The notes below the pieces were generated by a model, which searched no databases, was not told the DNA's origin, and saw nothing but the letters and a program-made list of their open reading frames with translations. This document shows positions 3,729-51,182 of a stretch of DNA of 64,000 bases, piece by piece. The translations under genes and the position numbers were made by a program. Source of the DNA: a bacterium. GTDB taxonomy: Bacteria; Patescibacteriota; Minisyncoccia; Phycocordibacterales; UBA2100. Where the stretch lies: positions 168,092 through 232,091 of the forward strand of contig JAYPJF010000001.1 of assembly GCA_038128225.1 (NCBI GenBank), in the 5' to 3' direction. The first letter of the stretch is position 1. Each line of letters opens with the position of its first letter.

Positions 3729-3741
3729 GAACTGACCCCAA

Positions 3742-3772: not shown

Positions 3773-3786
3773 GGTAGACTCGCGTA

Positions 3787-33063: not shown

Positions 33064-33860
33064 TCACGTATCATAGCATCGTGAAAAAACCGAGACTGGG
33101 GCAGCATTTTTTGAAAGCACGATTCGCACTACATACCTTAGTGCACGCAGCGCGCATTGCGCCAACAGACACAGTGCTTGAAGTTGGACCCGGTACTGGA
33201 AATCTCACCACCGTATTACTTGCGAACGCGAAGCGGGTGATCGCGATCGAAAAGGACCCTGCGCTCATCACGGTGTTGCGCGAACGGTTCCCTGATGCAA
33301 TTAGAGAACAGAAGCTCCTACTTTTCGAGGGCGACATCCGAGACGTTGACCTACAAACATTCGGTACGCGCGACCATGAGTACATTCTCGCAGCAAACAT
33401 TCCGTACTATATTACAGGCGAAATTATCCGAATGTTTTTAACGAACAAAGTACAGCCAAGTCGCGCCGCACTCCTCATACAAAAAGAGGTTGCGCAGCGG
33501 ATTGCGCGGTCAAAAAAAGAAAGTATTCTGTCCCTTTCTGTGAAAGTGTTCGGAACGCCACGCTACATCAAAACGGTTCCCGCTCGGTCGTTTTCACCTC
33601 CTCCAAAAGTTGATTCTGCGATCTTGCTCATTGACGAAATTTCGCGTACCCATCTCACCGAAGTTTCTGAGGAGCGTTTTTTCAAGCTAGTGAAAGCGGG
33701 GTTTTCAAGCAAGAGAAAGAAACTTGCCGGCAACTTAAAAACAATCAGTGATAAAGGCAAAATTACCGAGGCTTTTTTAACATGTGGTGTTCCTGAAAAT
33801 GCTCGCGCCGAAGACGTGCCTCTTTCTGCCTGGCAGTGCCTTGCGCGGAAAATCTCCTGA
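33045..33860 (+). CDS. rsmA: 16S rRNA (adenine1518/1519-N6)-dimethyltransferase
   Basis: Motifs LGQHFL, VLEVGPGTGNLT and NIPYYIT. Confidence 0.85.
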   Translation: MACLDPLTYHSIVKKPRLGQHFLKARFALHTLVHAARIAPTDTVLEVGPGTGNLTTVLLANAKRVIAIEKDPALITVLRERFPDAIREQKLLLFEGDIRDVDLQTFGTRDHEYILAANIPYYITGEIIRMFLTNKVQPSRAALLIQKEVAQRIARSKKESILSLSVKVFGTPRYIKTVPARSFSPPPKVDSAILLIDEISRTHLTEVSEERFFKLVKAGFSSKRKKLAGNLKTISDKGKITEAFLTCGVPENARAEDVPLSAWQCLARKIS

Positions 33861-35236: not shown

Positions 35237-36115
35237 GTGGACCACGAGCCTCGTAGCGCTACGCGTTTGCTTTTTATCGTTGCCGCACTTTCGATTGCGG
35301 GGCTACTCGCGGGTTTTGGTGCCACACTCGGAAAATACCGCGCCCCTGTCGCATCGGTAACTCCAACATGGGTATCCGCAACAAAGACTTTTGAGGAAAT
35401 CGACACTGATGGTGATACACTCCCCGACTGGCAGGAGACGCTGTTAGGGACCGATCCTGATAACATCGACTCGGATGGAGACGGAAAAACAGACTCCTTT
35501 GAGCCGCGCGCCAGTTTAGCCCTCAAAGCGAGCGCGGTCTCTGCGCCCAAATCGGTCACTGATGCCGCCGCGGAACGTCTCGTGCGCCAGTACTTAACAC
35601 TAAAACAAGCAAATGCATACACGCCAGAACGCGGAGAGCAGATCGCCTCAGGTCTTATTGAAAGCATTTATGCAACAGTTGCCTTTGAGCCATTCAACGA
35701 GAGCAGTCTCACGCTGGTGCCTGCGAATAAAGAGAGTGTACTCATGTACCAAGAGCGCTTTCGTGACACGATGGCCGCGTTCCTTGACCTTCAAGGCTCA
35801 GAAATTGCTTTGTTTGGAGAATATGCGAATACAAAAAATGAATACTACCTCGCGCAGCTTGAAGGGCGCGCTTCGTTATATGAATCAGTGGCACAAAAAA
35901 TACTTGCGATCCCAACACCCAACGACATGGCAGCCGAACACCTTGAGGTCGTGAATGGTCTTGCGTACTTTGGTGCTGTATTGCGCGACCTCGCACGGTT
36001 TGGCAGAGACCCGCTCACAGCACTTTCTCTTTTGCGCGCATACAACGAGGCGGAAGAGTATGTCGGGAGTACATTCACTGCACTTTCTTCTCGTCTAAAT
36101 ACACAACAGCTATGA
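35237..36115 (+). CDS. Hypothetical N-terminally anchored protein with a Ca-binding-like D-x-D-G-D repeat
   Basis: Motif DTDGDTLPDWQE...DPDNIDSDGDGKTDSFE. Confidence 0.5.
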   Translation: MDHEPRSATRLLFIVAALSIAGLLAGFGATLGKYRAPVASVTPTWVSATKTFEEIDTDGDTLPDWQETLLGTDPDNIDSDGDGKTDSFEPRASLALKASAVSAPKSVTDAAAERLVRQYLTLKQANAYTPERGEQIASGLIESIYATVAFEPFNESSLTLVPANKESVLMYQERFRDTMAAFLDLQGSEIALFGEYANTKNEYYLAQLEGRASLYESVAQKILAIPTPNDMAAEHLEVVNGLAYFGAVLRDLARFGRDPLTALSLLRAYNEAEEYVGSTFTALSSRLNTQQL

Positions 36116-38379
36116 GTAAATTCGTATACATACCCGCATTGCTGCTCTTAAGCATCCCGATGTGGGTATCCGCTGCGGTCACTTTGGACACAGTGCCGAC
36201 AGATGGTTTCGATATGTCAGGCACTGCTCCTCCGGGGTCAACGGTTACTATCGTGGGCCGCACAAGTCGCGCAACATGTCAGACAACGGCGGATACTAAC
36301 GGCCGCTATACATGTAGCTCGTTCGATCGATCACCCCAAGACGGTGAGACCCTTGAACTCCAGTCAATTGAGAACGGCGTTCGCTCTCCAATAACAGAAA
36401 TCGGAAATGGCGTCCAATTAACTGACGCCTCCCGGGAACGATATAACTTTCAACGCGAAGGAGTTTTTGGATGCGCCGCGGGCGCGTACGCAATGCCTGT
36501 GGGAACACTGCGAGCGATCAGTGGCGTATACGTCCCCGTGAACGACGCCGCGGTAACACTTAATACAGGGTATCTGGTTTACAAAGAGTGCGTGCTGGAC
36601 GGAGTTGTGCGCTCAACAGCTGAGTCGGCAACTGCTGCATTGTCCACAGGGGGGCTTCGCTGGCTCAATGAAGGGAGAAACGGGAACACCCAGTTTATTT
36701 CAAATCAGGAAGCTGAAAAACTCGCCCTTGCTGACAAGAAATATCTTGAGTTTTTGAGAGAATACCGAACCAATGCGCTTTGTGAACCATTCCAACAACG
36801 TGGTCGTGTCGCCGTCGCGAAAATGTACCTGACCCGCCGTGACCCAACAGCCGCATTCCAGTGTACAGCGCCGGTAAACGGCGCCGACCTTGAGACATGT
36901 ATCACTGTAGGAGATGACTTGCGTACCTGCGGAGGCCTACCAGGGTTTATTAAACTTGTACGTGATTCAAATAATAACCCTCTCTTTGCCGCTTTGGCAC
37001 TTGATCGAGAAGCAGCAAATCAGTCGGTTCGTCGCATACAAGATGTCTGGGATCAACTGGATTGGAGCGGTGGCATTTTGCCGCTCGAGGAAGTTGTTTC
37101 AACGGCAACCGAAACAGGGGAGGACCATTTGGAATATCGAACACTTACCCCGGGGTTTCTCATTGCTGCAGCGATGGAGCAGTTCACCACATCGGGGTTT
37201 AGGCAACTTGAAAGCGCCTCTGAAATTGATCAGATTGTTGGTGCGCTTTTTTCTGGTCTCACCACACAAATCGTTGCTGACGCCCGCGGCTTATCTGGGC
37301 TTACAGAAAGTAAAGGAGGACAGGCTCCATACCTTAATCGTCTTACAGCAGAGTCGTCTGCCCGCGTACGCACAGGGGCAACGAACGCCGCTTTAAGCGT
37401 CCTTGGTTCTTCGCTCGAAGCGGAAAATCAATATAACCAGGTCAAAAAGTCCACAATTCAAGAACTCGAACGTTCGATAGCTCGCCTCAAGGCAGCAGAA
37501 GATGCGTGCTGGAATCTTTTAATACCCGCAGTTCAGGCTATTGCACGAGAGTGTGTGCGCACAGAAACAAGCACCAACACGCAAGGAGAGCAAGTAACAA
37601 CATGCGTTGAATACCGGACGATTCCGCTTGCCATTTCAACCTCGACACGCAGGATCACCGAGGGCGTGGTTGCGCTTTCAGTATCGGCAAGTACCACGCT
37701 TCAAGCCGGAGCCTCACTTGCATTCACGGTTCCGCAAAACACTCTCATGAGCAGCGGCTCGCTCGGATTAACAACTGCTTCTGCAGGCGAACTTGGCCCC
37801 GGAACTAATGTTGGCCTTCCAATAAGCGGGACCGTTGCGCCAAGCCCTGGTGGCCGGGCGACGCTCTCGGTAGGGTCGTTTTCGTTCTTTAGTGGCGGCT
37901 CTCTTTCTTTTGATTTGTTCCAGGGGGCTTCGCTCCCTTTGGGTGAAGTGCGTTTTCCTGTGACCGCAGTGTACCCATACACAATAGCCGTCGCGCTTTC
38001 AGTTGAAATTGCCCGATTGTATTCGGACGATGTTGCGCAAGATAGCATCAACCCGCTTCTCAATACTATTCGAACCGATGTACGAAAGTCTGACGAAGCG
38101 ATCGTGTTGCTGCAACGTTTGGTAAACGATGTACGAAACACGTCATCGCAAACCGTGCAACGTCTTGCGCTTGAACGACTCGATACTCTAATTTCCCAAG
38201 GCACTGTTCACACCGCGTATGATGTAAAATCAGCACAATCTCAAAACGAGAGCGTTAAAAATGCTATGGAGGATCTTGTAAAAACCACGATCGAAGAGTG
38301 GGGCACGGGCAGTGGGTGGTGCAACGCTGAAAATCCTACCGTGGTCCAAATGTGGCTCGACCGCTGGCGCGCCGATTAG
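36112..38379 (+). CDS. Large secreted protein (755 aa), a candidate surface or adhesin component of the T4SS-like cluster
   Basis: Signal peptide MSKFVYIPALLLLSIPMWVSAAV. No recognisable catalytic motifs. Confidence 0.55.
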   Translation: MSKFVYIPALLLLSIPMWVSAAVTLDTVPTDGFDMSGTAPPGSTVTIVGRTSRATCQTTADTNGRYTCSSFDRSPQDGETLELQSIENGVRSPITEIGNGVQLTDASRERYNFQREGVFGCAAGAYAMPVGTLRAISGVYVPVNDAAVTLNTGYLVYKECVLDGVVRSTAESATAALSTGGLRWLNEGRNGNTQFISNQEAEKLALADKKYLEFLREYRTNALCEPFQQRGRVAVAKMYLTRRDPTAAFQCTAPVNGADLETCITVGDDLRTCGGLPGFIKLVRDSNNNPLFAALALDREAANQSVRRIQDVWDQLDWSGGILPLEEVVSTATETGEDHLEYRTLTPGFLIAAAMEQFTTSGFRQLESASEIDQIVGALFSGLTTQIVADARGLSGLTESKGGQAPYLNRLTAESSARVRTGATNAALSVLGSSLEAENQYNQVKKSTIQELERSIARLKAAEDACWNLLIPAVQAIARECVRTETSTNTQGEQVTTCVEYRTIPLAISTSTRRITEGVVALSVSASTTLQAGASLAFTVPQNTLMSSGSLGLTTASAGELGPGTNVGLPISGTVAPSPGGRATLSVGSFSFFSGGSLSFDLFQGASLPLGEVRFPVTAVYPYTIAVALSVEIARLYSDDVAQDSINPLLNTIRTDVRKSDEAIVLLQRLVNDVRNTSSQTVQRLALERLDTLISQGTVHTAYDVKSAQSQNESVKNAMEDLVKTTIEEWGTGSGWCNAENPTVVQMWLDRWRAD

Positions 38380-38382
38380 AAT

Positions 38383-40449
38383 ATGTTTTTCCCAAGAACA
38401 AAAAGTAGACTGCGCCCGTTTTTGTTAGTAACACTGATCATGTTCTCTTTGCTAACACTTGGGGCAACAGCGTATGCCGCATCACCCCCGGCTCCTGATG
38501 TGTGTGCTACATACAGATATTTTCCGCCTTTCGAATGCTTTGGCCGGTGGGCAGCAGAATTTCTAGGAGCGGCATTTTTAATTATTACCGGCTTCATCTT
38601 GGGTATTGTTGGAGTCGTTTTTAACAAACTGGTTGAAATTTCAGTAATTGATTTTGCGACATTTTACGACCCAATGAAAACAGCAGTCGAGCTTGGGTGG
38701 TCAACGTTTCGCGACGTCGCAAATATCGCTATTATTGGCGGTTTTGTATTTGTTGCCATCTCGATGATCTTGGGAGTGGAGAAGTTTGGCGCGCGCCGGT
38801 TTGTGGTGAATATTTTGATTGCTGCGGTACTCATCAACTTCAGTCTATTTTTTACTAAAATGATCGTTGATGTTTCCAACTTGTTTGCTTCACAATTCGC
38901 ACAAGCAATCAGCACGAGTACGACAAGTGCAAATATCAGCATTGGCCAAGTAGCGGAGCCTGTCGGTATCGCTGAAGCGTTTTTAAGTTACTTAAAGATT
39001 TCTAGTGTGCTGGATTCATATGGGGCGTTGCAACAACTCGGATCAAACACACAGTCTGGATTCCAGGTGCTGCTGGCAGCATTCTTGGGTTCTGTTTTTT
39101 TTATGCTCGCCGCACTGGTTTTACTGTACGCCTGCGTGCTGCTACTGGTTCGCACCGTCATGATTATTATGCTACTTCTCCTTTCTGCACTCGCGTTCGG
39201 GGCATACGCTGTGCCCACATTCTCGAACTGGTTTGATCGGTGGTGGAAAGAGCTGGTAAAACACGCTCTATTCGCTCCACTACTTATGCTTTTCCTATGG
39301 GCTACGGCCGGAATTTCTCGCGCACTCAGTGGCAGTGAAGGGTCACTTGGCTCGCTTGTCACTTCGCCCGACAGCAGTGTATCCGTAGGGACTGTGGTGA
39401 ACTTTTTTATCATCATTGGCTTACTGCTCGCATCAATCAAAATCGCAAATAGCTTTTCTGCTACAGCAGCAAAACATATGCCGAACTGGAAAGGAGCCGC
39501 CTCGTTTGCTGCAACATTCGGTGCAAACAAATGGTATCGGCCAGTACGAAACCTCGCTCGCTACGGGCTTAGCGCGCGCGCAAATCGAATACTTGAAGGT
39601 GAGAAAGGCGCGCGCATACGTGGAGAATTGGCCAATCTTGAAGAAAATATAAGGAAAGGAACAGCCTCAGGAAATGAAAAAGCTCGCGCGGCAGCGCTCC
39701 AGCGGCGCCTTGGTAACCTTACTGCCGATGCGGAAGGGAGGTTTGGATTCAAGGAGACGTATCTTGGCAAACAAATAGCGGGGTTTGGTAAAATTCTTAA
39801 GGAAGGTCCAGGAAAGGGTGGCGTAGCTGCTTCGCAGCAGAAAGCAGCCCAAGCAGAAATCGAACAAGCTGAGAAAATTAGAGCACCAAGGAGTGCCGAA
39901 AAACAAGAAGCTTTCGAAGCTGCTTTGAAAGATAAGAATGCGGTTGCACAGAAAATCCTACAAGACGCAAAAGCAAGTGAGCAAGCGGCGCGAAGTGAGG
40001 CGGAAAAGCAAATATCACAACTAGAAAGAGAGAGGGAAGTGTACCGAGAATTAATGGGGGCCGGTGATACTGAAAATGCCGCAGCAAACTACACAAGGAC
40101 CGAACAAGCTCTTGGCGAACAGCGTGCACGCATAGTGAAGGCGGCGCAGTCTGTCAAAGAAGCGGAGCGTACACTTGCAAACACCCCATCGGAAGCCCTC
40201 AAGTCTGCCCAGGCCGTTGCAAAAACTGTACAGAACGAGCGTATTGAAACATATGTGACCAACAAGTTCCCAGAAAGTTCGTACAAGCGAGAGTCAGCGA
40301 TGTCACAGCTCAGAAAAACAAAAGAGGACAAGGACAAGGCAAAAATTCTAGAGAAAGGAATCAAAGCGGCGCAAGAACTTTCTGGCGAAGATGTGGGCCT
40401 CAAAAAACCTACTGCTGCTGAATCAGGTGTTGAAAAGAAAGCTGCATAA
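38383..40449 (+). CDS. Polytopic membrane protein with a long C-terminal charged coiled-coil, VirB6/TrbL-like. Assignment is by topology and gene context.
   Basis: Signal peptide followed by at least six hydrophobic helices, then a K/E/A-rich tail. It lies directly upstream of the PrgI-like and VirB4-like genes. Confidence 0.5.
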   Translation: MFFPRTKSRLRPFLLVTLIMFSLLTLGATAYAASPPAPDVCATYRYFPPFECFGRWAAEFLGAAFLIITGFILGIVGVVFNKLVEISVIDFATFYDPMKTAVELGWSTFRDVANIAIIGGFVFVAISMILGVEKFGARRFVVNILIAAVLINFSLFFTKMIVDVSNLFASQFAQAISTSTTSANISIGQVAEPVGIAEAFLSYLKISSVLDSYGALQQLGSNTQSGFQVLLAAFLGSVFFMLAALVLLYACVLLLVRTVMIIMLLLLSALAFGAYAVPTFSNWFDRWWKELVKHALFAPLLMLFLWATAGISRALSGSEGSLGSLVTSPDSSVSVGTVVNFFIIIGLLLASIKIANSFSATAAKHMPNWKGAASFAATFGANKWYRPVRNLARYGLSARANRILEGEKGARIRGELANLEENIRKGTASGNEKARAAALQRRLGNLTADAEGRFGFKETYLGKQIAGFGKILKEGPGKGGVAASQQKAAQAEIEQAEKIRAPRSAEKQEAFEAALKDKNAVAQKILQDAKASEQAARSEAEKQISQLEREREVYRELMGAGDTENAAANYTRTEQALGEQRARIVKAAQSVKEAERTLANTPSEALKSAQAVAKTVQNERIETYVTNKFPESSYKRESAMSQLRKTKEDKDKAKILEKGIKAAQELSGEDVGLKKPTAAESGVEKKAA

Positions 40450-40453
40450 ATAT

Positions 40454-41104
40454 ATGTTGAACTTGAGCAACCTTGATCCCGAGCTGCGCAAAGAGCTTGA
40501 AACACACATTGCAACACTCCCTGTCCCCGTTAAAAAGGCAATGGAATCCGCTGACACATCTCGTCTGCTGCGAGATTTTGCTAAAAAATACCAACTTCAT
40601 TTAGACCAGTGGGGGAAACTCGAAACGGAAGTGTACATGGTCATGGTCGGTCTTGCACCAATACAAGCCCTTGCTTCAAACCTGCAAGTCGAACTTGGCA
40701 TCGGAAACCAGCTCGCTGGCCAGCTTTCAGCTGACGTTAACACTTCTATTTTTGCCCCCGTTCGTAAGGAGCTCGAACATCAGCTCGATCATGTTGCTGC
40801 GCAGTCAAAGACAGGAGCGCCTATTGAGGACATGACCGCGCAAATACTTGAAACGGCACGGCCCAAGCCGCCACAAAATACCGAAACACCGGTTATTGTT
40901 AATAGCGAGACACAGCAAAACAGCGTGACTGAAACACGTCCTGGGCAGGTAACGCCAGATGATACCCAGCCACAGCAAAAAGAATCCTCGCCAGAACAGA
41001 AGGCGGAGAAAACCGGTCCAACATCAGGGGCGTATGCGCCAGGCAAGCCAAGTAGTGAGCGCAAAGAAGTCCATGACGATCCGTATCGTGAGTCAGTTGA
41101 GTGA
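40454..41104 (+). CDS. Hypothetical protein with a Q/P-rich C-terminus, part of the T4SS-like cluster
   Basis: ATG at 40454. The track ORF begins at 40391. Confidence 0.45.
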   Translation: MLNLSNLDPELRKELETHIATLPVPVKKAMESADTSRLLRDFAKKYQLHLDQWGKLETEVYMVMVGLAPIQALASNLQVELGIGNQLAGQLSADVNTSIFAPVRKELEHQLDHVAAQSKTGAPIEDMTAQILETARPKPPQNTETPVIVNSETQQNSVTETRPGQVTPDDTQPQQKESSPEQKAEKTGPTSGAYAPGKPSSERKEVHDDPYRESVE

Positions 41105-41156
41105 ATTTATGCCACACCCATGCGTGCATGCAGTATATCGTTGATATAATGCTTCC

Positions 41157-41669
41157 ATGCAGTTCCAAGTTCCTCAATTCATCGAAGTCGAAGATAAGAT
41201 CATCGGCCCATTGACGTTTAAACAATTTCTATACGTTGGAGGCGGTGCGGGAATCTCATTCATTCTATGGCGCTTGCTGCCGCTCTGGGTAGCAGTACTC
41301 CCTATCCTTGGAATTCTCGGGCTCACCGCAGCACTCGCGATGGGGCAGTGGAATGGCCGCCCATTCATTACCGGACTTGAAAATAGTTTTTATTACCTTT
41401 TGAGTAAAAAATTGTACTTGTGGAGCCAACAACGCAGCCGTAAAAAACCTGAACAAGAGATTGTGGGGAAAGTGTTAGGAAAACAAGAGGTGTATATCCC
41501 GCGACTTGCCGATAGCAAACTACACGAACTCGCGTGGTCACTCGATATCCACGAACGTGTTGAAAATGCACGATTTCGTGATGTTCCTGTTAACGCTTCA
41601 GAAAACGTCGCCGCAACACCAGATGAGGATTTAGCGCTCCGCATCGCGCGCAGCGCACAAATTAGATAA
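41157..41669 (+). CDS. PrgI/VirB3-like small membrane protein
   Basis: N-terminus MQFQVPQFIEVEDKIIGPLTFKQFLYVGGGAGISFILWRLL matches the PrgI-family pattern of a (V/I)PK motif, a hydrophobic hairpin and a G-rich turn. Confidence 0.6.
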   Translation: MQFQVPQFIEVEDKIIGPLTFKQFLYVGGGAGISFILWRLLPLWVAVLPILGILGLTAALAMGQWNGRPFITGLENSFYYLLSKKLYLWSQQRSRKKPEQEIVGKVLGKQEVYIPRLADSKLHELAWSLDIHERVENARFRDVPVNASENVAATPDEDLALRIARSAQIR

Positions 41670-41671
41670 CT

Positions 41672-42331
41672 ATGGAAACAAAAGCAACCAGAAAAGCTTC
41701 GCAAGAATTTGTCCCCATTTCTGAAGTGCGCGATGGGGTTGTGGTGCTTAAAGACGGAGGCATGCGTGTGGTTCTTATGGCATCGTCTTTAAACTTTGCC
41801 TTGAAATCTGAAGACGAGCAGACTGCGTTCATTCTTCAATTCCAAAGTTTTCTAAACTCTCTTGATTTCACTACGCAGATTTTCGTGCAGTCGCGCATGC
41901 TCGATATTCGCCCCTACATTGCAACACTTGAAGCCGCGTACAAAGAGCAGCTTGATGATCTCATGCGAGTACAGATTCGTGAGTATATTGAATTCGTAAA
42001 AAACTTTACTGAAGCGGCAAATATTATGACAAAGAGCTTTTTCGTAATAGTGCCTTATACGCCGGCATTTATCTCATCTCGCACAAATCCTTTTGGAAGT
42101 CTTTTTGGTGGAGGGAAAAAACGCGATGATGCGGCCGCGAACCGTACGTTCGAAGAAAGCGTGTCACAGCTTGAACAGCGTGTTGCGATCGTACAACAAG
42201 GACTTGTTCGCTCAGGTGTTCGTACCGTCCAGCTTGGAAGCGAGGAGGTTATCGAGCTTTTCTACAAACTCTTTAATCCTGGAGAAAGGTCGAAGCCCAT
42301 CGCACTGGTTGACGAAGGTGCGCGTACATAA
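41672..42331 (+). CDS. VirB4/TraE/PrgJ-like conjugal-transfer ATPase, N-terminal fragment. It ends at an in-frame TAA.
   Basis: VPISEVRDGVVVLKDGGMRVVLMASSLNFALKSEDEQ is typical of the VirB4 N-domain. It is in the same frame as 42335..44200. Confidence 0.7.
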   Translation: METKATRKASQEFVPISEVRDGVVVLKDGGMRVVLMASSLNFALKSEDEQTAFILQFQSFLNSLDFTTQIFVQSRMLDIRPYIATLEAAYKEQLDDLMRVQIREYIEFVKNFTEAANIMTKSFFVIVPYTPAFISSRTNPFGSLFGGGKKRDDAAANRTFEESVSQLEQRVAIVQQGLVRSGVRTVQLGSEEVIELFYKLFNPGERSKPIALVDEGART

Positions 42332-42334
42332 GAT

Positions 42335-44200
42335 ATGGGAATACTCGATATATTATTTAAGAAAAAAGACCAAGGCAAAGCCGCTGTGTTACCGGTATTG
42401 CCTGCGGAAATTTACCAACAAGGAGTCCTTGATCTTCAGGATGTTATTGCGCCACATGCGCTCCGGATTAATCCGCGGGAACTCGATTTGGGAGAAAAAA
42501 TTTCAAGAACGTTTTTTGTTATCTCATACCCGCGATTCCTCACTACGGGATGGTTTGCGCCCATCATTAACATCGACAAAGTCATTGATATTACTATTTT
42601 TGTACACCCGATCGACACTAATGAGGTTTTGCGAAAATTCCAGAAAAAAGTAGCTGAGGTGCAGAGTCAGATCGCACAACGTGAAGAGAAGGGGATGGTA
42701 CGTGACCCGATGCTCGACACCGCTTATTCTGACCTCGAAACGCTGCGGGACCAACTCCAACAGGCTCAAGAAAAACTTTTTGATGTGGGGCTGTATCTAA
42801 CTTTGTATGGCGATACACGTGAAGAGGTTGATAAAGCAGAGTCTGAGATCCGCTCAATCCTCGAATCTCGCCTTGTATACCTGCGTCCGGCACTGTTCCA
42901 GCAAGAACAAGGATTTAAAAGTACGCTTCCGCTCGGGACCGACCTTATAAACATACACACTAAACTCAACTCATCACCCCTTTCAAGTATTTTCCCTTTC
43001 ATTTCATTCGATCTTACGTCAGACCGCGGCATTCTGTACGGCATCAACCGACACAACTCTTCACTCATACTGTTTGATCGTTTTTCTCTCGAAAACTACA
43101 ATTCGGTGACTTTTGCAAAATCCGGTGCTGGTAAATCGTACACCACAAAACTCGAGATTCTGCGTTCTCTGATGTTTGATACCGAGGTTATCATTATCGA
43201 CCCTGAGCGCGAGTATGAGTACCTCGCGGAAACCGTTGGGGGCCGCTACTTCAATATTTCTCTCTCTTCAGAACACCACATCAACCCTTTCGACCTTCCT
43301 GTTCCGCGAGAAGATGAAAACCCGGCAGATGTGTTGAGGAACCAGATCATTTCGCTTGTGGGGCTGGTGCGTATCATGCTTGGTGGACTCACTCCCGAAG
43401 AAGACGCAATTATCGATAAAGCGATTACGGAAACATACGCGCTTAAAGACATTACCGCCGATGCTGATTTTACTAATATCGAGCCCCCGCTACTCTCGGA
43501 CTTTGAATTAGTGCTCTCTGGCATGGAAGGTTCAGAGTCTCTCGTGCAACGGCTTTCAAAATACACCAAAGGGTCGTGGGCAGGTTTTATGAATCGTCCC
43601 ACAAACGTTGATATGAACAAGAAACTCATCGTCTTTTCAGTGCGCGACATGGAAGACGATCTCAAACCGGTCGCAATGTACATTGTGACGCACCATATCT
43701 GGAATGCGGTGCGTAAAGAACTCCGCAAACGGCTTCTGGTGATCGATGAGGCGTGGTGGATGATGAAATCTGAAGATACTGCATCGTTCCTGTTTGGCAT
43801 CGCCAAACGCGGTCGTAAATACTATCTTGGCCTTTCGACCATCACTCAAGACGTTGCGGACTTTTTAAACTCACCATACGGTCGCGCTATGATCACCAAC
43901 TCATCGATTCAATTACTCCTCCGACAGTCACCAACATCAATTGACCTCATTCAAGAAACATTCAAGCTTTCTGATGAAGAAAAGTACCTGTTACTCGAAT
44001 CCGACGTGGGGGAGGGGATATTCTTCGCAGGGCTAAAGCACGTTGCGATCAAAGTCATTGCTTCGTACACAGAAGACCAGATTATTACTTCCGATCCATC
44101 ACAAATTCTTGCTATCAGAAAGGCAAAAGAGGAGTTGCGCTCAACCCAAGCGTTACAAGAAGACCAGGTGCCAGGAGTAAGTACCCAAGCAGCACTATGA
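42335..44200 (+). CDS. VirB4/TraE/PrgJ-like conjugal-transfer ATPase, ATPase portion
   Basis: Motifs FFVISYPRFLTTGWF, Walker A KSGAGKSYTT and Walker B LLVIDEAWWMM. Confidence 0.8.
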   Translation: MGILDILFKKKDQGKAAVLPVLPAEIYQQGVLDLQDVIAPHALRINPRELDLGEKISRTFFVISYPRFLTTGWFAPIINIDKVIDITIFVHPIDTNEVLRKFQKKVAEVQSQIAQREEKGMVRDPMLDTAYSDLETLRDQLQQAQEKLFDVGLYLTLYGDTREEVDKAESEIRSILESRLVYLRPALFQQEQGFKSTLPLGTDLINIHTKLNSSPLSSIFPFISFDLTSDRGILYGINRHNSSLILFDRFSLENYNSVTFAKSGAGKSYTTKLEILRSLMFDTEVIIIDPEREYEYLAETVGGRYFNISLSSEHHINPFDLPVPREDENPADVLRNQIISLVGLVRIMLGGLTPEEDAIIDKAITETYALKDITADADFTNIEPPLLSDFELVLSGMEGSESLVQRLSKYTKGSWAGFMNRPTNVDMNKKLIVFSVRDMEDDLKPVAMYIVTHHIWNAVRKELRKRLLVIDEAWWMMKSEDTASFLFGIAKRGRKYYLGLSTITQDVADFLNSPYGRAMITNSSIQLLLRQSPTSIDLIQETFKLSDEEKYLLLESDVGEGIFFAGLKHVAIKVIASYTEDQIITSDPSQILAIRKAKEELRSTQALQEDQVPGVSTQAAL

Positions 44201-45225
44201 GTCGTATTCTCTTTGTTCTTCTCCTTTTAATACCGTGGTCAATAAGCGCCTTTTCTTTTCCGCCACTGGCTGTCGAAAATCCAATTCAAGTTACCTTAAC
44301 CCCTACAACCCCCAAACCTGGTGATACGGTCATCCTGCAGGCAAGTAGCCATATCGTTGATCTTGATAGATCGGTACTCGCATGGAGGATTAATGGCGCG
44401 GTTGTAAAAGGAGGCGTCGGTGAAACTCAAGTGCACGCCGTCATGGGAGTGCTTGGTGAGCCGCTCACGATACAACTTGTTACGGAAAGTTTTGAAAAAA
44501 ACGTATACGAGAATATGTTTCAGGTGTATCCAGCAAATGTGGTAATTGCGTGGGACGCAAACACGTATGCACCAGTTTTTTTTAAAGGAAGATCCCTACC
44601 TTCTCCTGGAGCCACGGTCACCGCGTACGCAGTGACACAGTTTGCGACAGAAACGACCATCATTGAACCTCAGGCGCTTATGTATGAGTGGTCGTTGGAT
44701 GGGAAAACACTTCCTGGTGGTAGCGGTATCGGGAAAAGCTCGGCTACATTTACGATGCCTGAATTCCCAGGCACCTATCAGTTACGTGTTGTTGTTCAGA
44801 CCACGGACGGGAAAATTGAAAGCCACGCCGCAGCGCAACTTACATCCCAATCACCTCTTTTGAGTCTCTATCGAGACACACCGCTTCTTGGCGTCGTCCG
44901 AACATCGTCGTTGTTATGGGATCCACGTATTAACGATGCAGAAGCTACGATCGCAGTGGTTCCTTACTACGCATCAATTACAACCGTTAAAGACAAAAAA
45001 CTTTCATACGCATGGAAATTCGATGAGAAACCGTTCCAACATGACCCAAACGATCCGAATCGCATCACTCTTCTTCTTGGTGATGGCCGCGCCCGGCCAC
45101 GAGCAGCGGTTGCAATTCAGCATCGCGACCATATTCTCCAAACCGCTGACCACGCATGGACAATTAACGTGAACCAGGAAGCGGCGGCGGCGAATAACCC
45201 ATTCCTGCGGCAATTTGACCTATGA
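44197..45225 (+). CDS. Secreted hypothetical protein, beta-rich (Ig-like repeats)
   Basis: Signal peptide MSRILFVLLLLIPWSISA. Confidence 0.5.
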   Translation: MSRILFVLLLLIPWSISAFSFPPLAVENPIQVTLTPTTPKPGDTVILQASSHIVDLDRSVLAWRINGAVVKGGVGETQVHAVMGVLGEPLTIQLVTESFEKNVYENMFQVYPANVVIAWDANTYAPVFFKGRSLPSPGATVTAYAVTQFATETTIIEPQALMYEWSLDGKTLPGGSGIGKSSATFTMPEFPGTYQLRVVVQTTDGKIESHAAAQLTSQSPLLSLYRDTPLLGVVRTSSLLWDPRINDAEATIAVVPYYASITTVKDKKLSYAWKFDEKPFQHDPNDPNRITLLLGDGRARPRAAVAIQHRDHILQTADHAWTINVNQEAAAANNPFLRQFDL

Positions 45226-46427
45226 GGAGAGAAATTATTGTCTGGATTGCTGTTGGAGCGATTACTACCACGCTTATGCTGCTCGCGGGGTGGTACTTTT
45301 TTATTCGAAACCAAGAAAATCAACTCACCCGCGTTTTTGAGGGTCGCGGTTTTGAAGCCACACTTCCTGAAGGAAGTGGGGTAGGAAGCACAGGTTTTAA
45401 TTTAGCGAGTGTTTTTTCATCGCCCACAATTGCCGATGCTGATCCGTCAGCAACAAACACAAACACCCCCTCGCGTCTCTGGCGGGTAAGTGTAATCCCC
45501 TCAGTGGGGTTACAGTTTTTTGGTAGCGAACTATATTACGCTGAACAGCCAACAGGTCATGTATTTAAGGCAAATCCAGAAACCGGAGCGGTGGAGCGCC
45601 TCAGCGCAACACTACTTCCCCGTGTAACTGATGTGGTGTGGGTCGCAACATCGTCGTTGATTGTGCAGCAAACGCCTTCCTTAGAAGAAACCTCGTATTT
45701 CGCGGGCCGTATAGAGACCGCGACGACGACAAACGGTGGTTCTTTGGTTGGTGAGTACTTACCAAAAGATGTTTTTGTGGTTGCTCCTGCAGGGGAATCG
45801 GCTTTTATGTACGGTGTGCGCGCAGGTTCCTCGGCGGCATTTATCGAGCGAACAATTTCGGGTGGAGAGAAACGAGTGTGGACTAACCCTCTGTCACATT
45901 GGATAATTAGGCCAACAGGTGCAGGGTATGTGTTTGTCGAACCACCTTCAAGTGTGGCGCTTGGTAGTGCGTTTATGTTTTCACAAAATACGCTTGTCCC
46001 TCTTGTACAGAATGCGTATGGGTTAATGGTGTCGCGATTTGGTGATCTTTTCAGTGAAACGAGGTCAGGAACTCCTGTATTGTTCACTTTTAAGGACGGT
46101 GCCCGCACCGACCTGCCTTTTGTCACATTCGCAGAAAAATGTGTTCGCGACCCAGGTAAAACAACCCGTGTGTATTGTGCCGTTCCGACCGAGTTTCCAA
46201 AACAGCGCGACAGTGTTGACGCATGGTATCGAGGCGAGGTCCACACGAGTGATCGCTGGTTTGCGCTCGATACAGAAACCAATGTGTCTGAACTCGTTCT
46301 CTCGCCTGAAGGGGAGTACGGCGTCCCACTTGACGTTTCTGATGTAACTATTTCGCGCGACGGTCTCTATCTTGCGTTTATTGATACAATAACAAGTACG
46401 CCTTGGGTGCTCCGCGTCAGGGAATAG
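45222..46427 (+). CDS. Hypothetical N-terminally anchored periplasmic or extracellular protein
   Basis: TM helix IIVWIAVGAITTTLMLLAGWYFF. Confidence 0.5.
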   Translation: MRREIIVWIAVGAITTTLMLLAGWYFFIRNQENQLTRVFEGRGFEATLPEGSGVGSTGFNLASVFSSPTIADADPSATNTNTPSRLWRVSVIPSVGLQFFGSELYYAEQPTGHVFKANPETGAVERLSATLLPRVTDVVWVATSSLIVQQTPSLEETSYFAGRIETATTTNGGSLVGEYLPKDVFVVAPAGESAFMYGVRAGSSAAFIERTISGGEKRVWTNPLSHWIIRPTGAGYVFVEPPSSVALGSAFMFSQNTLVPLVQNAYGLMVSRFGDLFSETRSGTPVLFTFKDGARTDLPFVTFAEKCVRDPGKTTRVYCAVPTEFPKQRDSVDAWYRGEVHTSDRWFALDTETNVSELVLSPEGEYGVPLDVSDVTISRDGLYLAFIDTITSTPWVLRVRE

Positions 46428-46428
46428 T

Positions 46429-46824
46429 ATGCGTGTATTTAAAAAATTACGTTTAGCAATTTCTCGAGTAGTGCCGAGTTTTGCGGCAACATTTCAACCA
46501 ATCACCGACGATTTTGAGCGGAACAGTTTTTTGCTCTCGGCAATGAAATCAGGGAGTGTTGCTGAATTTGTAAGCAGCGCGTTTAAAATCGCGATTGTGC
46601 TTGGAGCTATGTTTGCAGTGTTGAGAATTGGGTACGCTGGATTTTTATACATGACCACCGATGTGCTAGGTGACAAGGGGAGGGCGCGATCAATTCTTAC
46701 AAGCACCACACTAGGACTCGTGCTTCTTCTTGGGGTTTTCTTGATCCTCAACCAGATCAACCCCGAAATCCTCAAGCTTAAAATTCTCTCTTCTGAACAA
46801 AGCGCGCCTGAAGACCGTCGTTAA
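46429..46824 (+). CDS. Small two-helix membrane protein, pilin-like (VirB2/TrbC-like topology)
   Basis: Two hydrophobic helices, AFKIAIVLGAMFAVLRIGYAGFLYM and TLGLVLLLGVFLILNQ. Confidence 0.4.
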   Translation: MRVFKKLRLAISRVVPSFAATFQPITDDFERNSFLLSAMKSGSVAEFVSSAFKIAIVLGAMFAVLRIGYAGFLYMTTDVLGDKGRARSILTSTTLGLVLLLGVFLILNQINPEILKLKILSSEQSAPEDRR

Positions 46825-46826
46825 AA

Positions 46827-47270
46827 CTATTCAGGCTTGTACCTGATAACAAGACGTCGGTTTTTGCCTTCTCCTTGCGACTCAGTGCTTACATTGGGCT
46901 CCTCCGCTAGGGTCGCATGCACAATCATTCGCTCATATGCCGACAAATCACTCATTTCAACATCATATTGGAAAGACCGGGCTCTGCCTGCCATCATTTT
47001 AGCTTTTTGTTGTAACTCTTGAATGCTTTTGGTGCGATAATTATCGACGTCAATCACAAAATGCGTGTCCTCGATACCGCGTTGTTCAGCTATTTTCTTG
47101 GCCACATATTCAAGCGATCGGAGTGTTTCACCTCGTACACCGATGAGTGTTTTTGGTTCGGTTGTTTTGACAGTAAAGATGCGCTGCCCAGCAACAGTCC
47201 CTTCCTCGATTCCGCTATACGGCAGGCCAATATGCTCGAGTAGCTCTGTGACTATCGTTGGTATCTGCAT
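46827..47270 (-). CDS. jag: Jag/KhpB (KH plus R3H) RNA-binding protein
   Basis: KH motif LIGVRGETLRSLEY and an R3H-like C-terminus, located in the yidC-jag pair. Confidence 0.75.
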   Translation of the reverse strand: MQIPTIVTELLEHIGLPYSGIEEGTVAGQRIFTVKTTEPKTLIGVRGETLRSLEYVAKKIAEQRGIEDTHFVIDVDNYRTKSIQELQQKAKMMAGRARSFQYDVEMSDLSAYERMIVHATLAEEPNVSTESQGEGKNRRLVIRYKPE

Positions 47271-47272
47271 AG

Positions 47273-48007
47273 TTATACCGTATCTTTACCATGTTTTTCT
47301 TTCCTTACCAAGAGTTCCTGCCCTATGGTAAATGTATTGCTTACAACCCAGTACAATGCAACAGCGGCAGAAATTGTGTATGCAAATACCCCAACAAGAA
47401 CTGGGAGTACGTACTTTACCTGCACGTGCATACTCCGCATCAAATCGTCCTTAAATGTTGGTGTTCCTTGGGGAGGCTCTGGTTTTTGAACTGACAATAA
47501 CGCGTGTAGAAATTGTGTCACGCCAGCAAGTACCGCAAGCGCCACGCTGCGATCGCCCATATTAATGCCAAAGATGAAATGCATATCAACTGATTCCGGT
47601 GGAGGAACAAAAGAGTATAAAAGTGTCGTATCGATAGTCGGAAGTCCTCCTTTATAAAAAACCCAATACAAGCCTAAGATGACAGGGATCTGAATAAACA
47701 GCGTGGCAATACTTGCAAATGGATGAATATTGTACTCTCGGTACAATGCGAGAGTTTTTTCCAAATACATTTTTTGATCGTCTTTGTATTGTTTCTTTAT
47801 TTCTTCGAGTTTTGGAGCAGCAACGCGCATGGCACGTTGCGTATGAATGGCTTTTCGCGCTAAAGGGAAAAGAATAATCTTAACCGCCACCGTGAGCGCA
47901 ATGATTGCAAGCGCGACATTACTTATCGAAGGAAGTACCGAGAGGAGAAATACGAGACTGTTGTACAGTGGATCGTACACTACAAGGTGAAAGAATGAAC
48001 TGAGCAT
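47273..48007 (-). CDS. yidC: Membrane protein insertase YidC (short form)
   Basis: Multi-TM protein with the conserved GLYWV block, located next to rnpA. Confidence 0.8.
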   Translation of the reverse strand: MLSSFFHLVVYDPLYNSLVFLLSVLPSISNVALAIIALTVAVKIILFPLARKAIHTQRAMRVAAPKLEEIKKQYKDDQKMYLEKTLALYREYNIHPFASIATLFIQIPVILGLYWVFYKGGLPTIDTTLLYSFVPPPESVDMHFIFGINMGDRSVALAVLAGVTQFLHALLSVQKPEPPQGTPTFKDDLMRSMHVQVKYVLPVLVGVFAYTISAAVALYWVVSNTFTIGQELLVRKEKHGKDTV

Positions 48008-48541: not shown

Positions 48542-49888
48542 ATGTTGAGTGATCGTGAGTTATGGCAAAACGCACTCGTCCAAATCGAGCTTGGGACCTC
48601 TGAGGCAAGTTTTCGGACGTGGTTTAAAGGCACTGATATTGTTAAAAGAGAAAACGGGGAAGTGCAGATCGCCGTTCCAAGTAAAATTGTAAAAGAATGG
48701 TTGCGTGAAAAACATAATAAACTAATCCTCAAAACCCTTCGCGACCTCGACCCGTCGGTTCGCTCAATTGAGTATGTGGTCCATAAAGTAACCAAGCCAC
48801 AACCAAAAGAGTCGCCACATCAATACCAAGCAAACGAAACACTCGAGATTTCTGATCTTTATATCGACAAACGTGATAATTTAAACCCCCGATATACATT
48901 TGAGACTTTTATTGTTGGTAACTTTAACCAACTCGCGCACGCTGCGGCACAAGCGGTCATTCAGCGGCCCGGACTAACATATAACCCATTATTTATCTAT
49001 GGGCACACGGGGCATGGAAAAACACACCTCATCCAAGCAATTGGTAACTATTTCAAAAAAAAGCACCAAAATAAAAAGGTTTTCTATGTGACCTCAGAGC
49101 GTTTTGCGATCGACTATATCAATGCTGTTCGCGTCGGGCGCGCTAATTCGTTTAAAGACCATTACCGACAATACGATGTCCTTATTATGGATGACGTCCA
49201 GTTCATTGCGAACACTGAAAAAACACAAGAAGAACTTTTCCATCTTTTTAACGCGCTCCACGACAATAACAAACAAATTGTTTTTTCTTCTGATAAACAC
49301 CCTAGTCAATTACCTAATTTTGAAGACCGTTTGAAAGGTCGTTTTAGTGCAGGAATGATTGCTGAAATACCTCCACCGGATCTCGAATCACGAATCTCGA
49401 TTATCAAAGCGAAAGGGGATCATTATCATTTTCCTTTTTCTGATGAAAATGCGAAATATATAGCGGGGAACGTCACAGGAAATATTCGAGAACTCGAGGG
49501 AGTGGTAAATATGCTTATTTGCAAAACCCAAGTGAAGGGATCGGTGCTTACCGAACAAGAAATAGCTTTAGTTATCAAACAAACAACAAAGCCGTCTCGT
49601 GGTGTCTCTATTACTGATGTAGTAAAGAAGACTGCGCAATTTTATAATATTGAAGAGAAAAGTATCTACGAAAAAACAAGAAAAAAAGAGGTTGTGCGCC
49701 CACGTCAAGTAATTATGTTTATCCTTCGAGAAGAGTTTGGTGTTTCATATCCAAGTATCGGTGAAAAACTTGGTGGGCGCGACCACACTACAGTCATTCA
49801 TTCTTGTGAAAAAATAAAAGATGAGATCAAACGAGACCCTGTACTCGCTCAAGAGATTGAGGAAGTTAAATCTCTTATGAGTGTATAA
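48542..49888 (+). CDS. dnaA: Chromosomal replication initiator DnaA
   Basis: Walker A GHTGHGKTHL, an AAA+ core and a C-terminal DNA-binding domain. Confidence 0.9.
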   Translation: MLSDRELWQNALVQIELGTSEASFRTWFKGTDIVKRENGEVQIAVPSKIVKEWLREKHNKLILKTLRDLDPSVRSIEYVVHKVTKPQPKESPHQYQANETLEISDLYIDKRDNLNPRYTFETFIVGNFNQLAHAAAQAVIQRPGLTYNPLFIYGHTGHGKTHLIQAIGNYFKKKHQNKKVFYVTSERFAIDYINAVRVGRANSFKDHYRQYDVLIMDDVQFIANTEKTQEELFHLFNALHDNNKQIVFSSDKHPSQLPNFEDRLKGRFSAGMIAEIPPPDLESRISIIKAKGDHYHFPFSDENAKYIAGNVTGNIRELEGVVNMLICKTQVKGSVLTEQEIALVIKQTTKPSRGVSITDVVKKTAQFYNIEEKSIYEKTRKKEVVRPRQVIMFILREEFGVSYPSIGEKLGGRDHTTVIHSCEKIKDEIKRDPVLAQEIEEVKSLMSV

Positions 49889-50087: not shown

Positions 50088-51182
50088 ATGAAGTACACCT
50101 GTGAAAAGAAAGATTTATTGCATGCTGTTGAAATCGCAGAGCGTATTGTAGGTAAAAAGGAAAACCTTCCCGTTCTTTCGTGTGTTCTTTTTGATGTGCA
50201 AGAAAAAATCACCTGTACTGCAACCAATCTTGAATCTGCGGTTTGTATATCTATCCCAGGTGCTATACAAAAAAAAGGGAAGGTAGCAGTTCCTGCGACG
50301 CTTCTTATTGGGTTATTAAGAAATTCCCGCGGAGAAAAAGTAACCATTTCAGTTGAGGATGTTTTTACACTCGAATCAGTAGGGTCTGTTGATAAGATTA
50401 AAATAGTTCCTCATGACGAGTTCCCAACAATACCGTTCATGAATAAAAACGAGCAGAGTTATATCCTCCCTATACGTACATTTTCAAACGGTGTCACAGC
50501 GGTTTTATACGCAGCATCAACATCATTAATACGTCCAGAGTTTGCGAGTGTGTATATAACACAACAAAATACATCAATGGTTTTTGCTGCGACTGACTCT
50601 TTTCGACTTGCTGAAAAAAAGATTCAAAGCAAGGAAACAGAAAACATCTTTGATGTCCTTTTACCAACAAAGAACGCGCAAGAGCTTATTTCTGTATTTA
50701 GTGGTGAGGAAGGGGATGCGGTCTGTGTTCTTACGGAATCTCAAATACAAGTAACTGTAGATGGTCTTGTGTATGTTTCTAGGGTTATTGATGGAACATT
50801 TCCTGAATATACCGCCGTGATTCCTAAGAATTTCTCTACAGAAATGACAGTACTTAAAAGTGATTTTGAAAGCGTACTTCGAAAAGGTAGGTTGTTTTCA
50901 AAAACAAACCAATATATAAGTTTCCATATATATCCGCAAAAGAAAATATGCACTATCACCACTCGAAATACCGATATTGGAGAAATGACTGAAACTCTTA
51001 CTGCTGCGCTCTCAGGTGATGAACTTGATATTAACTTTAATATTCAATATCTACAGGATTGTTTATCAACCATACACTCCGATAGTGTTGTGTTGCGTTT
51101 CGCCGGCGCAGGAAAACCTCTTGTAATACAAGGGATTTCTGATCAGACATTTCGGTACTTAGTGATGCCACTTAATAAATAG
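50088..51182 (+). CDS. dnaN: DNA polymerase III beta sliding clamp
   Basis: Three-domain clamp, positioned after dnaA. Confidence 0.9.
   Translation: MKYTCEKKDLLHAVEIAERIVGKKENLPVLSCVLFDVQEKITCTATNLESAVCISIPGAIQKKGKVAVPATLLIGLLRNSRGEKVTISVEDVFTLESVGSVDKIKIVPHDEFPTIPFMNKNEQSYILPIRTFSNGVTAVLYAASTSLIRPEFASVYITQQNTSMVFAATDSFRLAEKKIQSKETENIFDVLLPTKNAQELISVFSGEEGDAVCVLTESQIQVTVDGLVYVSRVIDGTFPEYTAVIPKNFSTEMTVLKSDFESVLRKGRLFSKTNQYISFHIYPQKKICTITTRNTDIGEMTETLTAALSGDELDINFNIQYLQDCLSTIHSDSVVLRFAGAGKPLVIQGISDQTFRYLVMPLNK

Follow-up and report, generated by a model that had tools for sequence, protein, structure and literature searches.

An in-frame TAA in a Patescibacteria VirB4 locus most probably separates two genuine genes, trsD and virB4

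Quinonero-Coronel et al. (2025, PMC12102498) have described TrsD, encoded next to VirB4, as the T4SS component found most commonly in Patescibacteria. In that study TrsD adjoins virB4 in 1,664 of 2,272 cases, its remote homology to the VirB4 N-terminus is stated, the genes listed as essential in Ca. S. epibionticum ML1 include a TrsD homolog, and the T4SS clusters are often found near dnaA; the geometry of the junction, a break point shared with pSK41 and fused TrsD-VirB4 forms are not discussed there. TrsD goes unmentioned in the main text of Guglielmini et al. 2014 (PMC4027160). The staphylococcal plasmid pSK41 carries trsC (VirB3), trsD (227 aa) and virB4 (672 aa) in this order, with a 14-nt gap and in a different frame, and VirB3-VirB4 fusions are known in some MPF_T systems (PMC4027160, PMC12102498). 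A VirB4 encoded by two genes is, in Patescibacteria, an already known and ordinary arrangement.

The window (the whole stretch of 64,000 nucleotides that was analysed) carries two adjacent ORFs, ORF1 and ORF2, which an earlier note on this DNA had described as a VirB4-like ATPase gene split by a single in-frame TAA. The TAA and the common frame are real, but the lesion that this description implies is not, because the split is present in 78/78 relatives. We conclude with high confidence that ORF1 and ORF2 are a natural two-gene VirB4 (trsD plus virB4) belonging to a chromosomal Patescibacteria T4SS cluster. The relevant features are, in the order of the window:

36112-38379, forward strand: Big_6-domain protein, an upstream gene of the T4SS cluster
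38377-38385, forward strand: in-frame junction TAG-AAT-ATG, internal control for the TAA-GAT-ATG geometry
38383-40449, forward strand: VirB6/TrbL-like polytopic protein (weak TrbL match, 16.8 bits, below the Pfam cutoff)
40454-41104, forward strand: unassigned gene, probable start at 40454, in the upstream part of the T4SS cluster (36112-41104)
41142-41150, forward strand: extended -10-like box TGATATAAT, with its end 6 nt 5' of the prgI ATG
41157-41669, forward strand: PrgI/VirB3-like gene, 170 aa (Pfam PF12666 PrgI, 33 bits, cutoff 27), with a 2-nt gap to ORF1
41672-42331, forward strand: ORF1, trsD-like gene, 219 aa, ATG at 41672
42329-42331, forward strand: TAA stop codon of trsD, the same in three independent assemblies, with a stop here in 78/78 related loci
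42332-42334, forward strand: intergenic spacer GAT, 3 nt, read from the sequence
42335-44200, forward strand: ORF2, virB4 (trsE-type) ATPase gene, 621 aa, ATG at 42335, stop at 44198-44200
43121-43138, forward strand: predicted Walker A motif SGAGKS, ORF2 residues 263-268, from the translation and kept in the alignment with the fused protein P0232
43733-43750, forward strand: predicted Walker B motif LLVIDE, ORF2 residues 467-472, from the translation and kept in the same alignment
44197-45225 and 45222-46427, forward strand: downstream operon genes, junctions of -4 and -4 nt
46429-46824, forward strand: T4SS-pilin-like gene, junction of +1 nt (weak Pfam T4SS_pilin match, 20.9 bits, below the cutoff of 26.6)

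On the window sequence both ORFs lie in one frame with the TAA plus one codon between them, and skipping the stop gives a computed product of 219 + 1 + 621 = 841 aa, which confirms the layout and the joint length of about 841 aa given in the earlier note. Its VirB4 domain assignment also holds, with the ATPase in ORF2 and matches to VirB4 models and chains in ORF1, and the two ORFs jointly span a complete VirB4. Judging by its sequence, ORF2 is a VirB4-family T4SS ATPase that comprises the ATPase domain preceded by what is left of the N-terminal domain. It scores 375.4 bits against NCBIfam NF045971 conju_CD1110 (cutoff 325; model positions 184-733 of 752) and 87.7 bits against Pfam P-loop_TraG (cutoff 25.8); PDB entry 4ag5, the VirB4 C-terminal domain, matches its residues 231-586 (E 3.5e-43), and residues 288-735 of TrwK align to its residues 114-552 (E 7.6e-8). 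Both Walker motifs are intact, and the best 120 homologs measure 609-732 aa and are 85-89 % identical.

Sequence comparison and structure prediction together indicate that ORF1 is a stand-alone TrsD-type protein, the counterpart of the first ~200 residues of a canonical VirB4. The best 120 homologs are 209-240 aa long and carry Pfam PF26593 'TraC-like', and ORF1 homologs come from Kaiserbacteria, Paceibacterota and Parcubacteria MAGs; a Pfam scan of ORF1 gave no match, and its own PF26593 assignment was taken from precomputed matches on an identical protein. Against NCBIfam TrsD/TraD NF041427 ORF1 scores 26.2 bits (E 6e-6) and does not reach the curated cutoff of 200 bits, and because of this difference it is best described as a remote relative of staphylococcal TrsD and not as a strict NF041427 member. 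Comparison with pSK41 TrsD by hhalign gave an E of 1.8e-5 over 167 columns, and ORF1 also matches the VirB4 model conju_CD1110 at positions 5-116. A sequence search of ORF1 against the PDB returned nothing meaningful, and the structural kinship rests on structure prediction plus Foldseek: the top 14 PDB matches of the AF2 model (pLDDT 89.4) are all TrwK/VirB4, and it can be overlaid on the N-terminal portion of TrwK with a TMq of 0.50-0.57 and a probability of 1.0. ORF1 is TrsD-like in the broad sense, as a stand-alone protein within the range of ~200-230 aa, homologous to the VirB4 N-terminus and encoded directly 5' of virB4 and 3' of the VirB3-like prgI.

The surrounding genes point to a T4SS of the Patescibacteria type: VirB4, TrsD and PrgI/VirB3 are accompanied by weakly assigned VirB6-like and VirB2-like pilin genes, on the chromosome and near dnaA. 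KsgA, jag, yidC, dnaA and dnaN flank the cluster, with dnaA 1.7 kb from its end, and the gene equivalent to 46429-46824 in one relative (L085) also has a weak T4SS_pilin match. That TrsD associates with VirB4 and PrgI is presumed from homology to the single-chain VirB4. TrsD and VirB4 would reassemble non-covalently into a VirB4-like unit, and this unit would dock on the VirB3-like PrgI encoded just 5' of them.

The junction was compared across 78 analysable loci of related species, all fairly close relatives (ORF1 identity 68-78 %); coverage beyond them rests on 50 %-identity representatives, the fused clade and PMC12102498. In every one of the 78 loci a stop follows the ORF1 homolog and an ATG stands at the homologous ORF2 start, with the head M-[AGS]-[LF]-x-D; two loci were scored automatically as non-ATG, but the ATG was visible on inspection of both. 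The gap between trsD and virB4 ranges from 1 to 476 nt, is of 1-6 nt in 39 of the species and measures exactly 3 nt in five. Because identities of ~72 % (ORF1) and ~86 % (ORF2) are kept across species, both genes are under purifying selection. No fused form was found among the best 120 ORF1 and the best 120 ORF2 homologs, and the protein is stand-alone in 148 of the best 150 50 %-identity representatives. Orthologs are hence split at the same point with their separate starts conserved, the very observation that the earlier note had named as a refutation. This speaks against a lesion and supports another suggestion of the earlier note, namely that VirB4 is genuinely in two parts, with translation of the second part beginning at the adjacent ATG.

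A sister clade within Patescibacteria (Candidatus Colwellbacteria where the source names it) has TrsD and VirB4 fused, as in P0232, a protein of 797 aa. P0232 shares 42 % identity with ORF1 and 56 % with ORF2 and runs collinear to the pair, its residues 8-210 aligning to ORF1 10-204 and its residues 226-796 to ORF2 30-599. The break point corresponds in P0232 to a linker of 15 residues, modelled with lower confidence, which stands in for the last 15 residues of ORF1 and the first 29 of ORF2. The P0232 model aligns with TrwK over its full length (E 6e-26, TM 0.56); it was built from an alignment of natural fusions only and is of moderate quality (pLDDT 72, pTM 0.52), and it was used for the full-length fold match, domain packing not being relied on. 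A mixed MAFFT alignment of fused, TrsD-only and VirB4-only proteins was discarded, since the first ~116 residues of the VirB4-only proteins were misplaced on the TrsD region.

In some relatives with separate genes, heptad TAG-repeat hairpins occur at the trsD-virB4 junction. An Rfam scan of these hairpin-bearing relatives yielded no credible family, the two matches obtained (E about 0.5) being eukaryotic RNAs attributable to chance.

As for the expression of ORF2, the geometry of the junction makes it reasonably likely that translation proceeds by termination-reinitiation, in which ribosomes finishing trsD would restart at the adjacent virB4 ATG, because ORF2 is without a Shine-Dalgarno sequence and without a -10 box of its own and the junctions of the operon are tight (-4, 3, 2, 3, -4, -4 and 1 nt). 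The ORF2 start lies 3 nt from the trsD stop, with no Shine-Dalgarno above background and no -10 box at leaderless distance; this signal is absent at genes here generally, so that Shine-Dalgarno analysis is uninformative for ORF2, and the weak AAGG motif 16 nt 5' of its ATG (duplex dG -4.1 kcal/mol) is within the background range. The -10 boxes can be followed across the window: a TAnnnT ending 4-9 nt 5' of the start is found at 16 of 51 gene starts, versus 7.6 % of background ATGs, while the extended form TGnTAnnnT is located 6 nt before the ATG at first genes and not at ORF1 or ORF2. The box TGATATAAT, which belongs to these 16, is probably the promoter of a leaderless prgI-trsD-virB4-... transcript.

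The alternative that survives best accepts both genes as genuine but has ORF2 initiated independently, either on a leaderless or short-leader mRNA made from an internal promoter or through direct internal 70S/30S binding. Leaderless-type starts appear common in this genome, and relatives with spacers of 20-100 nt often have -10-like hexamers (TACAAT, TATACT) in the spacer, some of them ~6-9 nt before the virB4 ATG. The window, however, has no TAnnnT box at the usual distance in the 22 nt 5' of ORF2, its 3-nt gap fits the tight junctions of the operon's other internal genes, and half of the relatives (39/78) likewise have gaps of at most 6 nt, so that we regard an independent start as rather unlikely here.

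A broader proposal is that the separate TrsD is more than a detached piece of VirB4, namely a regulated, exchangeable adaptor. Translational coupling would fix its stoichiometry relative to the ATPase, and the coupling would be preserved by stop-start adjacency, as in the window, or by hairpins. In relatives with spacers of ~70-100 nt, the heptad TAG-repeat hairpins would join the trsD stop and the virB4 start at the base of the stem. We hold this proposal to be improbable.

Our results show that the common frame is no more than chance and without function, because the prior expectation is one third, only 18 of the 78 related species are in frame, and a control pair has identical geometry. This control consists of the unrelated genes at 36112-38379 and 38383-40449 in the same operon, where TAG, one codon and an ATG follow each other in frame. 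The same results bear on stop-codon readthrough, also raised by the earlier note, according to which programmed or low-level natural readthrough of the TAA would give some functionally relevant 841-aa VirB4 beside the separate proteins. The geometry permits it, and the viability of a single chain is shown by the fused homologs that occur naturally. On the other hand, the in-frame relation is the least frequent class among relatives (18 same frame, 34 +1, 26 +2), and five of the 18 same-frame loci have the exact geometry of the window, while several others have 2-12 in-frame stops in the spacer. Furthermore, the type of stop varies (TAA in 40 loci, TAG in 31, TGA in 7), no conserved context or structure is present 3' of the stop, and ORF2 carries an ATG of its own in every case. 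Of the three stop codons, TAA leaks least. Taken in this general form, readthrough is very unlikely; in a weaker and likewise improbable variant, rare readthrough of the TAA would supply some single-chain VirB4 in the window's lineage alone.

Bacterial codes 4, 11 and 25 all read TAA as a stop, and an alternative genetic code for it was rejected on this ground.

A recent nonsense mutation that pseudogenised a single-chain VirB4 and disabled the motor of the cluster can be given almost no weight. The ORFs do share a frame with one stop and one codon between them, and single-chain TrsD-VirB4 proteins do occur in another Patescibacteria clade, but such a mutation would not account for a stop in 78/78 related species with variable gaps and frames, nor for the fact that 0/78 related loci are uninterrupted and that an ATG is found at the homologous start in every one. 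Both halves are strongly conserved, and ORF2 in particular keeps its ATG, its N-terminal head and its Walker A and B motifs at ~86 % identity across species. Indeed, pSK41 TrsE aligns at its N-terminus with this head, MGILDILFKKK, while the fused proteins lack it, which argues for an old two-gene state and not for a fresh lesion. An assembly or sequencing error creating a false stop at 42329, a general possibility for any metagenome-assembled genome, is just as improbable, since three independent assemblies from separate runs (DRR685533, DRR685536 and DRR404984) share the identical junction, the near-identical ORF1 proteins P0001-P0003 are all of 219 aa, and related species likewise have a stop here.

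As a consequence, a pseudogene label would be wrong for the T4SS motor of the window, and its cluster should count as intact. The annotation matters because epibiotic growth reportedly depends on the Patescibacteria T4SS, including a TrsD homolog, in the single strain examined (PMC12102498). Three points go beyond the published description: the break point is common to the staphylococcal pSK41/pGO1 trsD-trsE pair, it falls in a flexible linker within the VirB4 N-terminal domain, and one Patescibacteria clade has both parts as a single chain. The split and fused forms offer a natural pair for testing the role of TrsD.

Among known systems, trsC-trsD-trsE (traC-traD-traE) of pSK41/pGO1 (MPF_FATA, pGO1 subclass) shows the same order of a VirB3-like protein, a TrsD of ~220 aa and a VirB4 of ~620-670 aa. 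The break point is also the same, the ORF1 family aligning with TrsD 40-217 and residue 2 of TrsE with residue 3 of ORF2, although TrsE and ORF2 are only 24 % identical; in staphylococci the system is carried by a plasmid, serves conjugation and includes a relaxase, whereas the window cluster is chromosomal and lies beside the origin. TrwK of R388 (PDB 7o41, 7o43, 8rtb, 8rtd) is one polypeptide where the window has two, and relative to this canonical VirB4 the break falls inside the N-terminal domain, after ~200 residues, and not at the boundary between the N-terminal and ATPase domains. The VirB3-VirB4 fusions of MPF_T systems likewise show evolutionary flexibility in how the VirB3/VirB4 module is divided into polypeptides, but they join a different boundary; no such fusion is present at the window locus, which represents the fission direction. 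With the Patescibacteria T4SS of PMC12102498 the window shares both the set and the order of VirB6-like, PrgI, TrsD-like, VirB4 and pilin-like genes; nothing material differs, and the locus is one more instance of that system.

The earlier note had read ORF1 and ORF2 as a VirB4-like ATPase gene split by one in-frame TAA, and the layout it described is borne out by the sequence, with both ORFs in the same frame and only the TAA and one codon between them:

41672 to 42331 (+): ORF1, 219 aa, from ATG 41672 to TAA 42329-42331
ORF1-ORF2 spacer: a single codon, GAT, after the TAA
42335 to 44200 (+): ORF2, 621 aa, from ATG 42335 to the stop at 44198-44200, in the frame of ORF1

The proposal that the two together make up one VirB4 also holds, as both match parts of the full-length VirB4 model conju_CD1110 (NCBIfam): ORF1 covers positions 5-116, and ORF2 positions 184-733 of 752 (375 bits, cutoff 325). 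Pfam P-loop_TraG is also detected in ORF2, which matches the VirB4 C-terminal domain of PDB 4ag5 (E 3.5e-43) and has both its Walker A (SGAGKS) and Walker B (LLVIDE) motifs intact; judged by its sequence, ORF2 is a VirB4-type ATPase. ORF1 was modelled with AlphaFold2 from a 91-sequence alignment (pLDDT 89.4) and the model was searched against the PDB, where it matched only TrwK/VirB4 chains of the R388 T4SS (14 at probability 1.00, TMq 0.50-0.57), followed by noise. Because its match to NCBIfam TrsD/TraD is weak (26 bits, strict cutoff 200), we call ORF1 TrsD-like (Pfam PF26593 'TraC-like') and not a member of the staphylococcal family.

To compare the junction across relatives, we retrieved 80 loci with an ORF1 relative from distinct species-level genomes, 78 of which could be analysed at this point. 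In all 78 a stop codon ends the ORF1 homolog (TAA in 40, TAG in 31, TGA in 7), and an ATG stands at the site homologous to Met1 of ORF2, at the start of a conserved head, M-[AGS]-[LF]-x-D; this includes two loci where extrapolation alone had pointed to a non-ATG codon. The gap between these trsD and virB4 genes ranges from 1 to 476 nt (up to 6 nt in 39 loci, 7-30 in 7, 31-130 in 26, over 130 in 6) and is exactly 3 nt, as in the window, in five species. Identity is 68-78 % for ORF1 homologs, with a median of 86 % for ORF2 homologs. The best 120 relatives in the protein database are without exception 209-240 aa long for ORF1 and 609-732 aa for ORF2, the latter 85-89 % identical.

Selected readthrough of the stop codon would join the in-frame ORFs of the window into one product. 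We reject it because the same-frame layout is the rarest of the three classes (18 of 78 loci, with 34 at +1 and 26 at +2; chi-square p = 0.085), three different stop codons are used, and several same-frame spacers of relatives hold 2-12 in-frame stops. Pseudogenisation by a nonsense mutation is rejected as well: the ortholog comparison that the earlier note had proposed found orthologs split at the same point with their own starts and not one uninterrupted junction, while gap and frame vary and both ORFs are conserved. An unrelated pair in the same operon, encoding a Big_6-domain protein (36112-38379) and a VirB6/TrbL-like protein (38383-40449), has exactly the same geometry at 38377-38385 (TAG, one codon, AAT, and an in-frame ATG). 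An assembly error is dismissed by the identical junction in three assemblies from separate sequencing runs. ORF1 and ORF2 thus prove to be two genes, each with its own start and stop, and purifying selection acts on both.

Searched exhaustively, the 50 %-identity representatives yielded 2,213 ORF1 relatives. Of the 150 best, all but two (148) stand alone, at 146-443 aa, and the longer ones end in low-complexity Pro/Ala/Gln-rich tails; such long C-terminal extensions are seen in the homologs P0139 and P0167 and in other TrsD homologs of 300-440 aa. The other two, of about 800-900 aa, led to a clade in which the TrsD and VirB4 parts form one chain of about 790 aa. Its clusters number at least 115, with identities of 59-90 % (proteins P0232, P0263, P0391-P0509), and are assigned to Candidatus Colwellbacteria in those sources that name them; P0409 and P0505 (about 600 aa), among the matches listed, span the VirB4 part only. 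This fused form is not mentioned in the main text of a 2025 study of Patescibacteria T4SS (PMC12102498). Residues 8-210 of the fused protein P0232 align with ORF1 10-204 (42 % identity) and residues 226-796 with ORF2 30-599 (56 %), and therefore the break in the window corresponds to a 15-residue linker of the fused protein. Compared with P0232, only the split form has the 15-residue tail of ORF1 and the 29-residue head of ORF2. The P0232 model, which is moderately confident (pLDDT 72, falling to about 61 near the linker), matches TrwK, the single-chain VirB4 of R388, from end to end (E 6e-26, TM 0.56 normalised either way). By sequence, TrwK 288-735 is the counterpart of ORF2 114-552, which puts the break within the N-terminal domain of VirB4 rather than at its border with the ATPase domain. 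A similar linker, of about 130 residues, is present in the fused protein P0263; like the extended TrsD homologs, it would fit a disordered region at the break point.

Homology to single-chain VirB4, fusions that are viable in nature and a prgI-trsD-virB4 order that is conserved suggest that the TrsD-like protein and VirB4 would reassemble into one VirB4-like unit, seated on PrgI, the VirB3-like protein. As to how ORF2 is initiated, a Shine-Dalgarno signal does not rise above background at the gene starts of this genome. A TAnnnT box, mostly extended to TGnTAnnnT, is found at 16 of 51 starts, against 7.6 % of background ATGs; it ends 4-9 nt 5' of the ATG, and exactly 6 nt from it in 11 of the 16, which suggests widespread leaderless mRNAs, with first genes leaderless. 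Examples are:

41142-41150: box before prgI, TGATATAAT
boxes upstream of 3787, 34245 and 35237
boxes upstream of 11960, 19895, 33063, 53569 and 54610, all (-)

Neither ORF1 nor ORF2 has such a box at its start, and the operon junctions from prgI onward measure 2, 3, -4, -4 and 1 nt. Given these tight junctions and the missing signals, ORF2 is probably translated by termination-reinitiation coupling, with independent internal initiation as the alternative. Of the two-part VirB4 with reinitiation proposed earlier, then, the two-gene state stands firmly and reinitiation is the somewhat favoured mode.

About one-third of relatives have a trsD-virB4 spacer of 66-102 nt. At least 12 of 28 folded spacers form a long hairpin (z -3.5 to -7.9 against shuffles), with a 5' arm of (TAGNNNN)x3-4 whose first TAG is the stop codon of the upstream gene, an A-rich loop of about 35-45 nt, and a complementary 3' arm, (NNNNCTA)xn, that stops some 4-12 nt short of the next ATG. 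The NNNN positions vary among species while arm complementarity is kept. Hairpins were located in these related loci:

L011: 3382-3478, 4146-4242
L086: 8183-8207, 8597-8627, 9136-9232, 9900-9996
trsD-virB4 spacer: also L022, L025, L039, L046, L056, L057, L068, L069, L074, L080

One relative has a syntenic stretch of 22 kb in which all seven arrays (0.12 expected by chance) fall in four consecutive T4SS-operon junctions, surrounding a 123-aa 23S_rRNA_IVP/bAvd-family gene, prgI, trsD and virB4. Heptad arrays are absent from the window, and Rfam holds no family matching the hairpins. They might serve for coupling, be cut by RNase III or represent an IVS/MITE-like insert; speculatively, the hairpin would bring stop and start side by side, keeping coupling across a long spacer. 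In a few relatives, 400-480 nt are inserted between trsD and virB4 (411-nt gap in L007 and L024, 476-nt in L062 and L079), and in L062 this insert holds a 118-aa ORF (3632-3988).

The T4SS cluster sits within the chromosomal origin region, syntenic with the related loci L085 and L086 and with full synteny in one relative, and is flanked by:

33045-33860: KsgA, upstream
46827-48007: jag and yidC, downstream
48542-49888: dnaA, downstream
50088-51182: dnaN, downstream

In relatives, the 123-aa gene (8210-8581 in L085/L086, 2456-2827 in L011) lies between a gene of about 200 aa and prgI, with CTAG-heptad arrays on both sides; it is absent from the window, where a 52-nt gap (41105-41156) is found. 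Called at its longest, the ORF that follows the VirB6-like gene overlaps it by 59 nt (40391-40449), and a start at ATG 40454 (4-nt gap) is more likely.

The staphylococcal conjugative plasmid pSK41 has the same order as prgI, ORF1 and ORF2 in the window: trsC, trsD (227 aa) and a gene for a 672-aa VirB4-like protein. TrsC of the related plasmid pGO1 is a VirB3 homolog (PMC4027160). The trsD-virB4 gap of pSK41 is 14 nt with a differing frame, whereas that of the window is 3 nt in the same frame. TrsD of pSK41 aligns with the ORF1 family profile over 167 columns (hhalign E 1.8e-5), and TrsE aligns with ORF2 from the third residue of ORF2 (IMAFLKKKKQE against ILDILFKKKDQ); the break point is therefore common to both. 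According to Quinonero-Coronel et al. 2025 (PMC12102498), TrsD is remotely homologous to the VirB4 N-terminus and outnumbers every other T4SS component in Patescibacteria: 2,272 homologs were counted, and virB4 accompanies 1,664. The same study lists a TrsD homolog of Ca. S. epibionticum ML1 as essential, and places T4SS clusters often near dnaA, dnaN, KsgA, RnpA and RpmH. The window agrees with this account, with genes for a VirB6-like protein, PrgI, the TrsD-like protein, VirB4 and a pilin-like protein, and the locus is thus an instance of the ordinary, already described trsD-virB4 two-gene arrangement of Patescibacteria T4SS.
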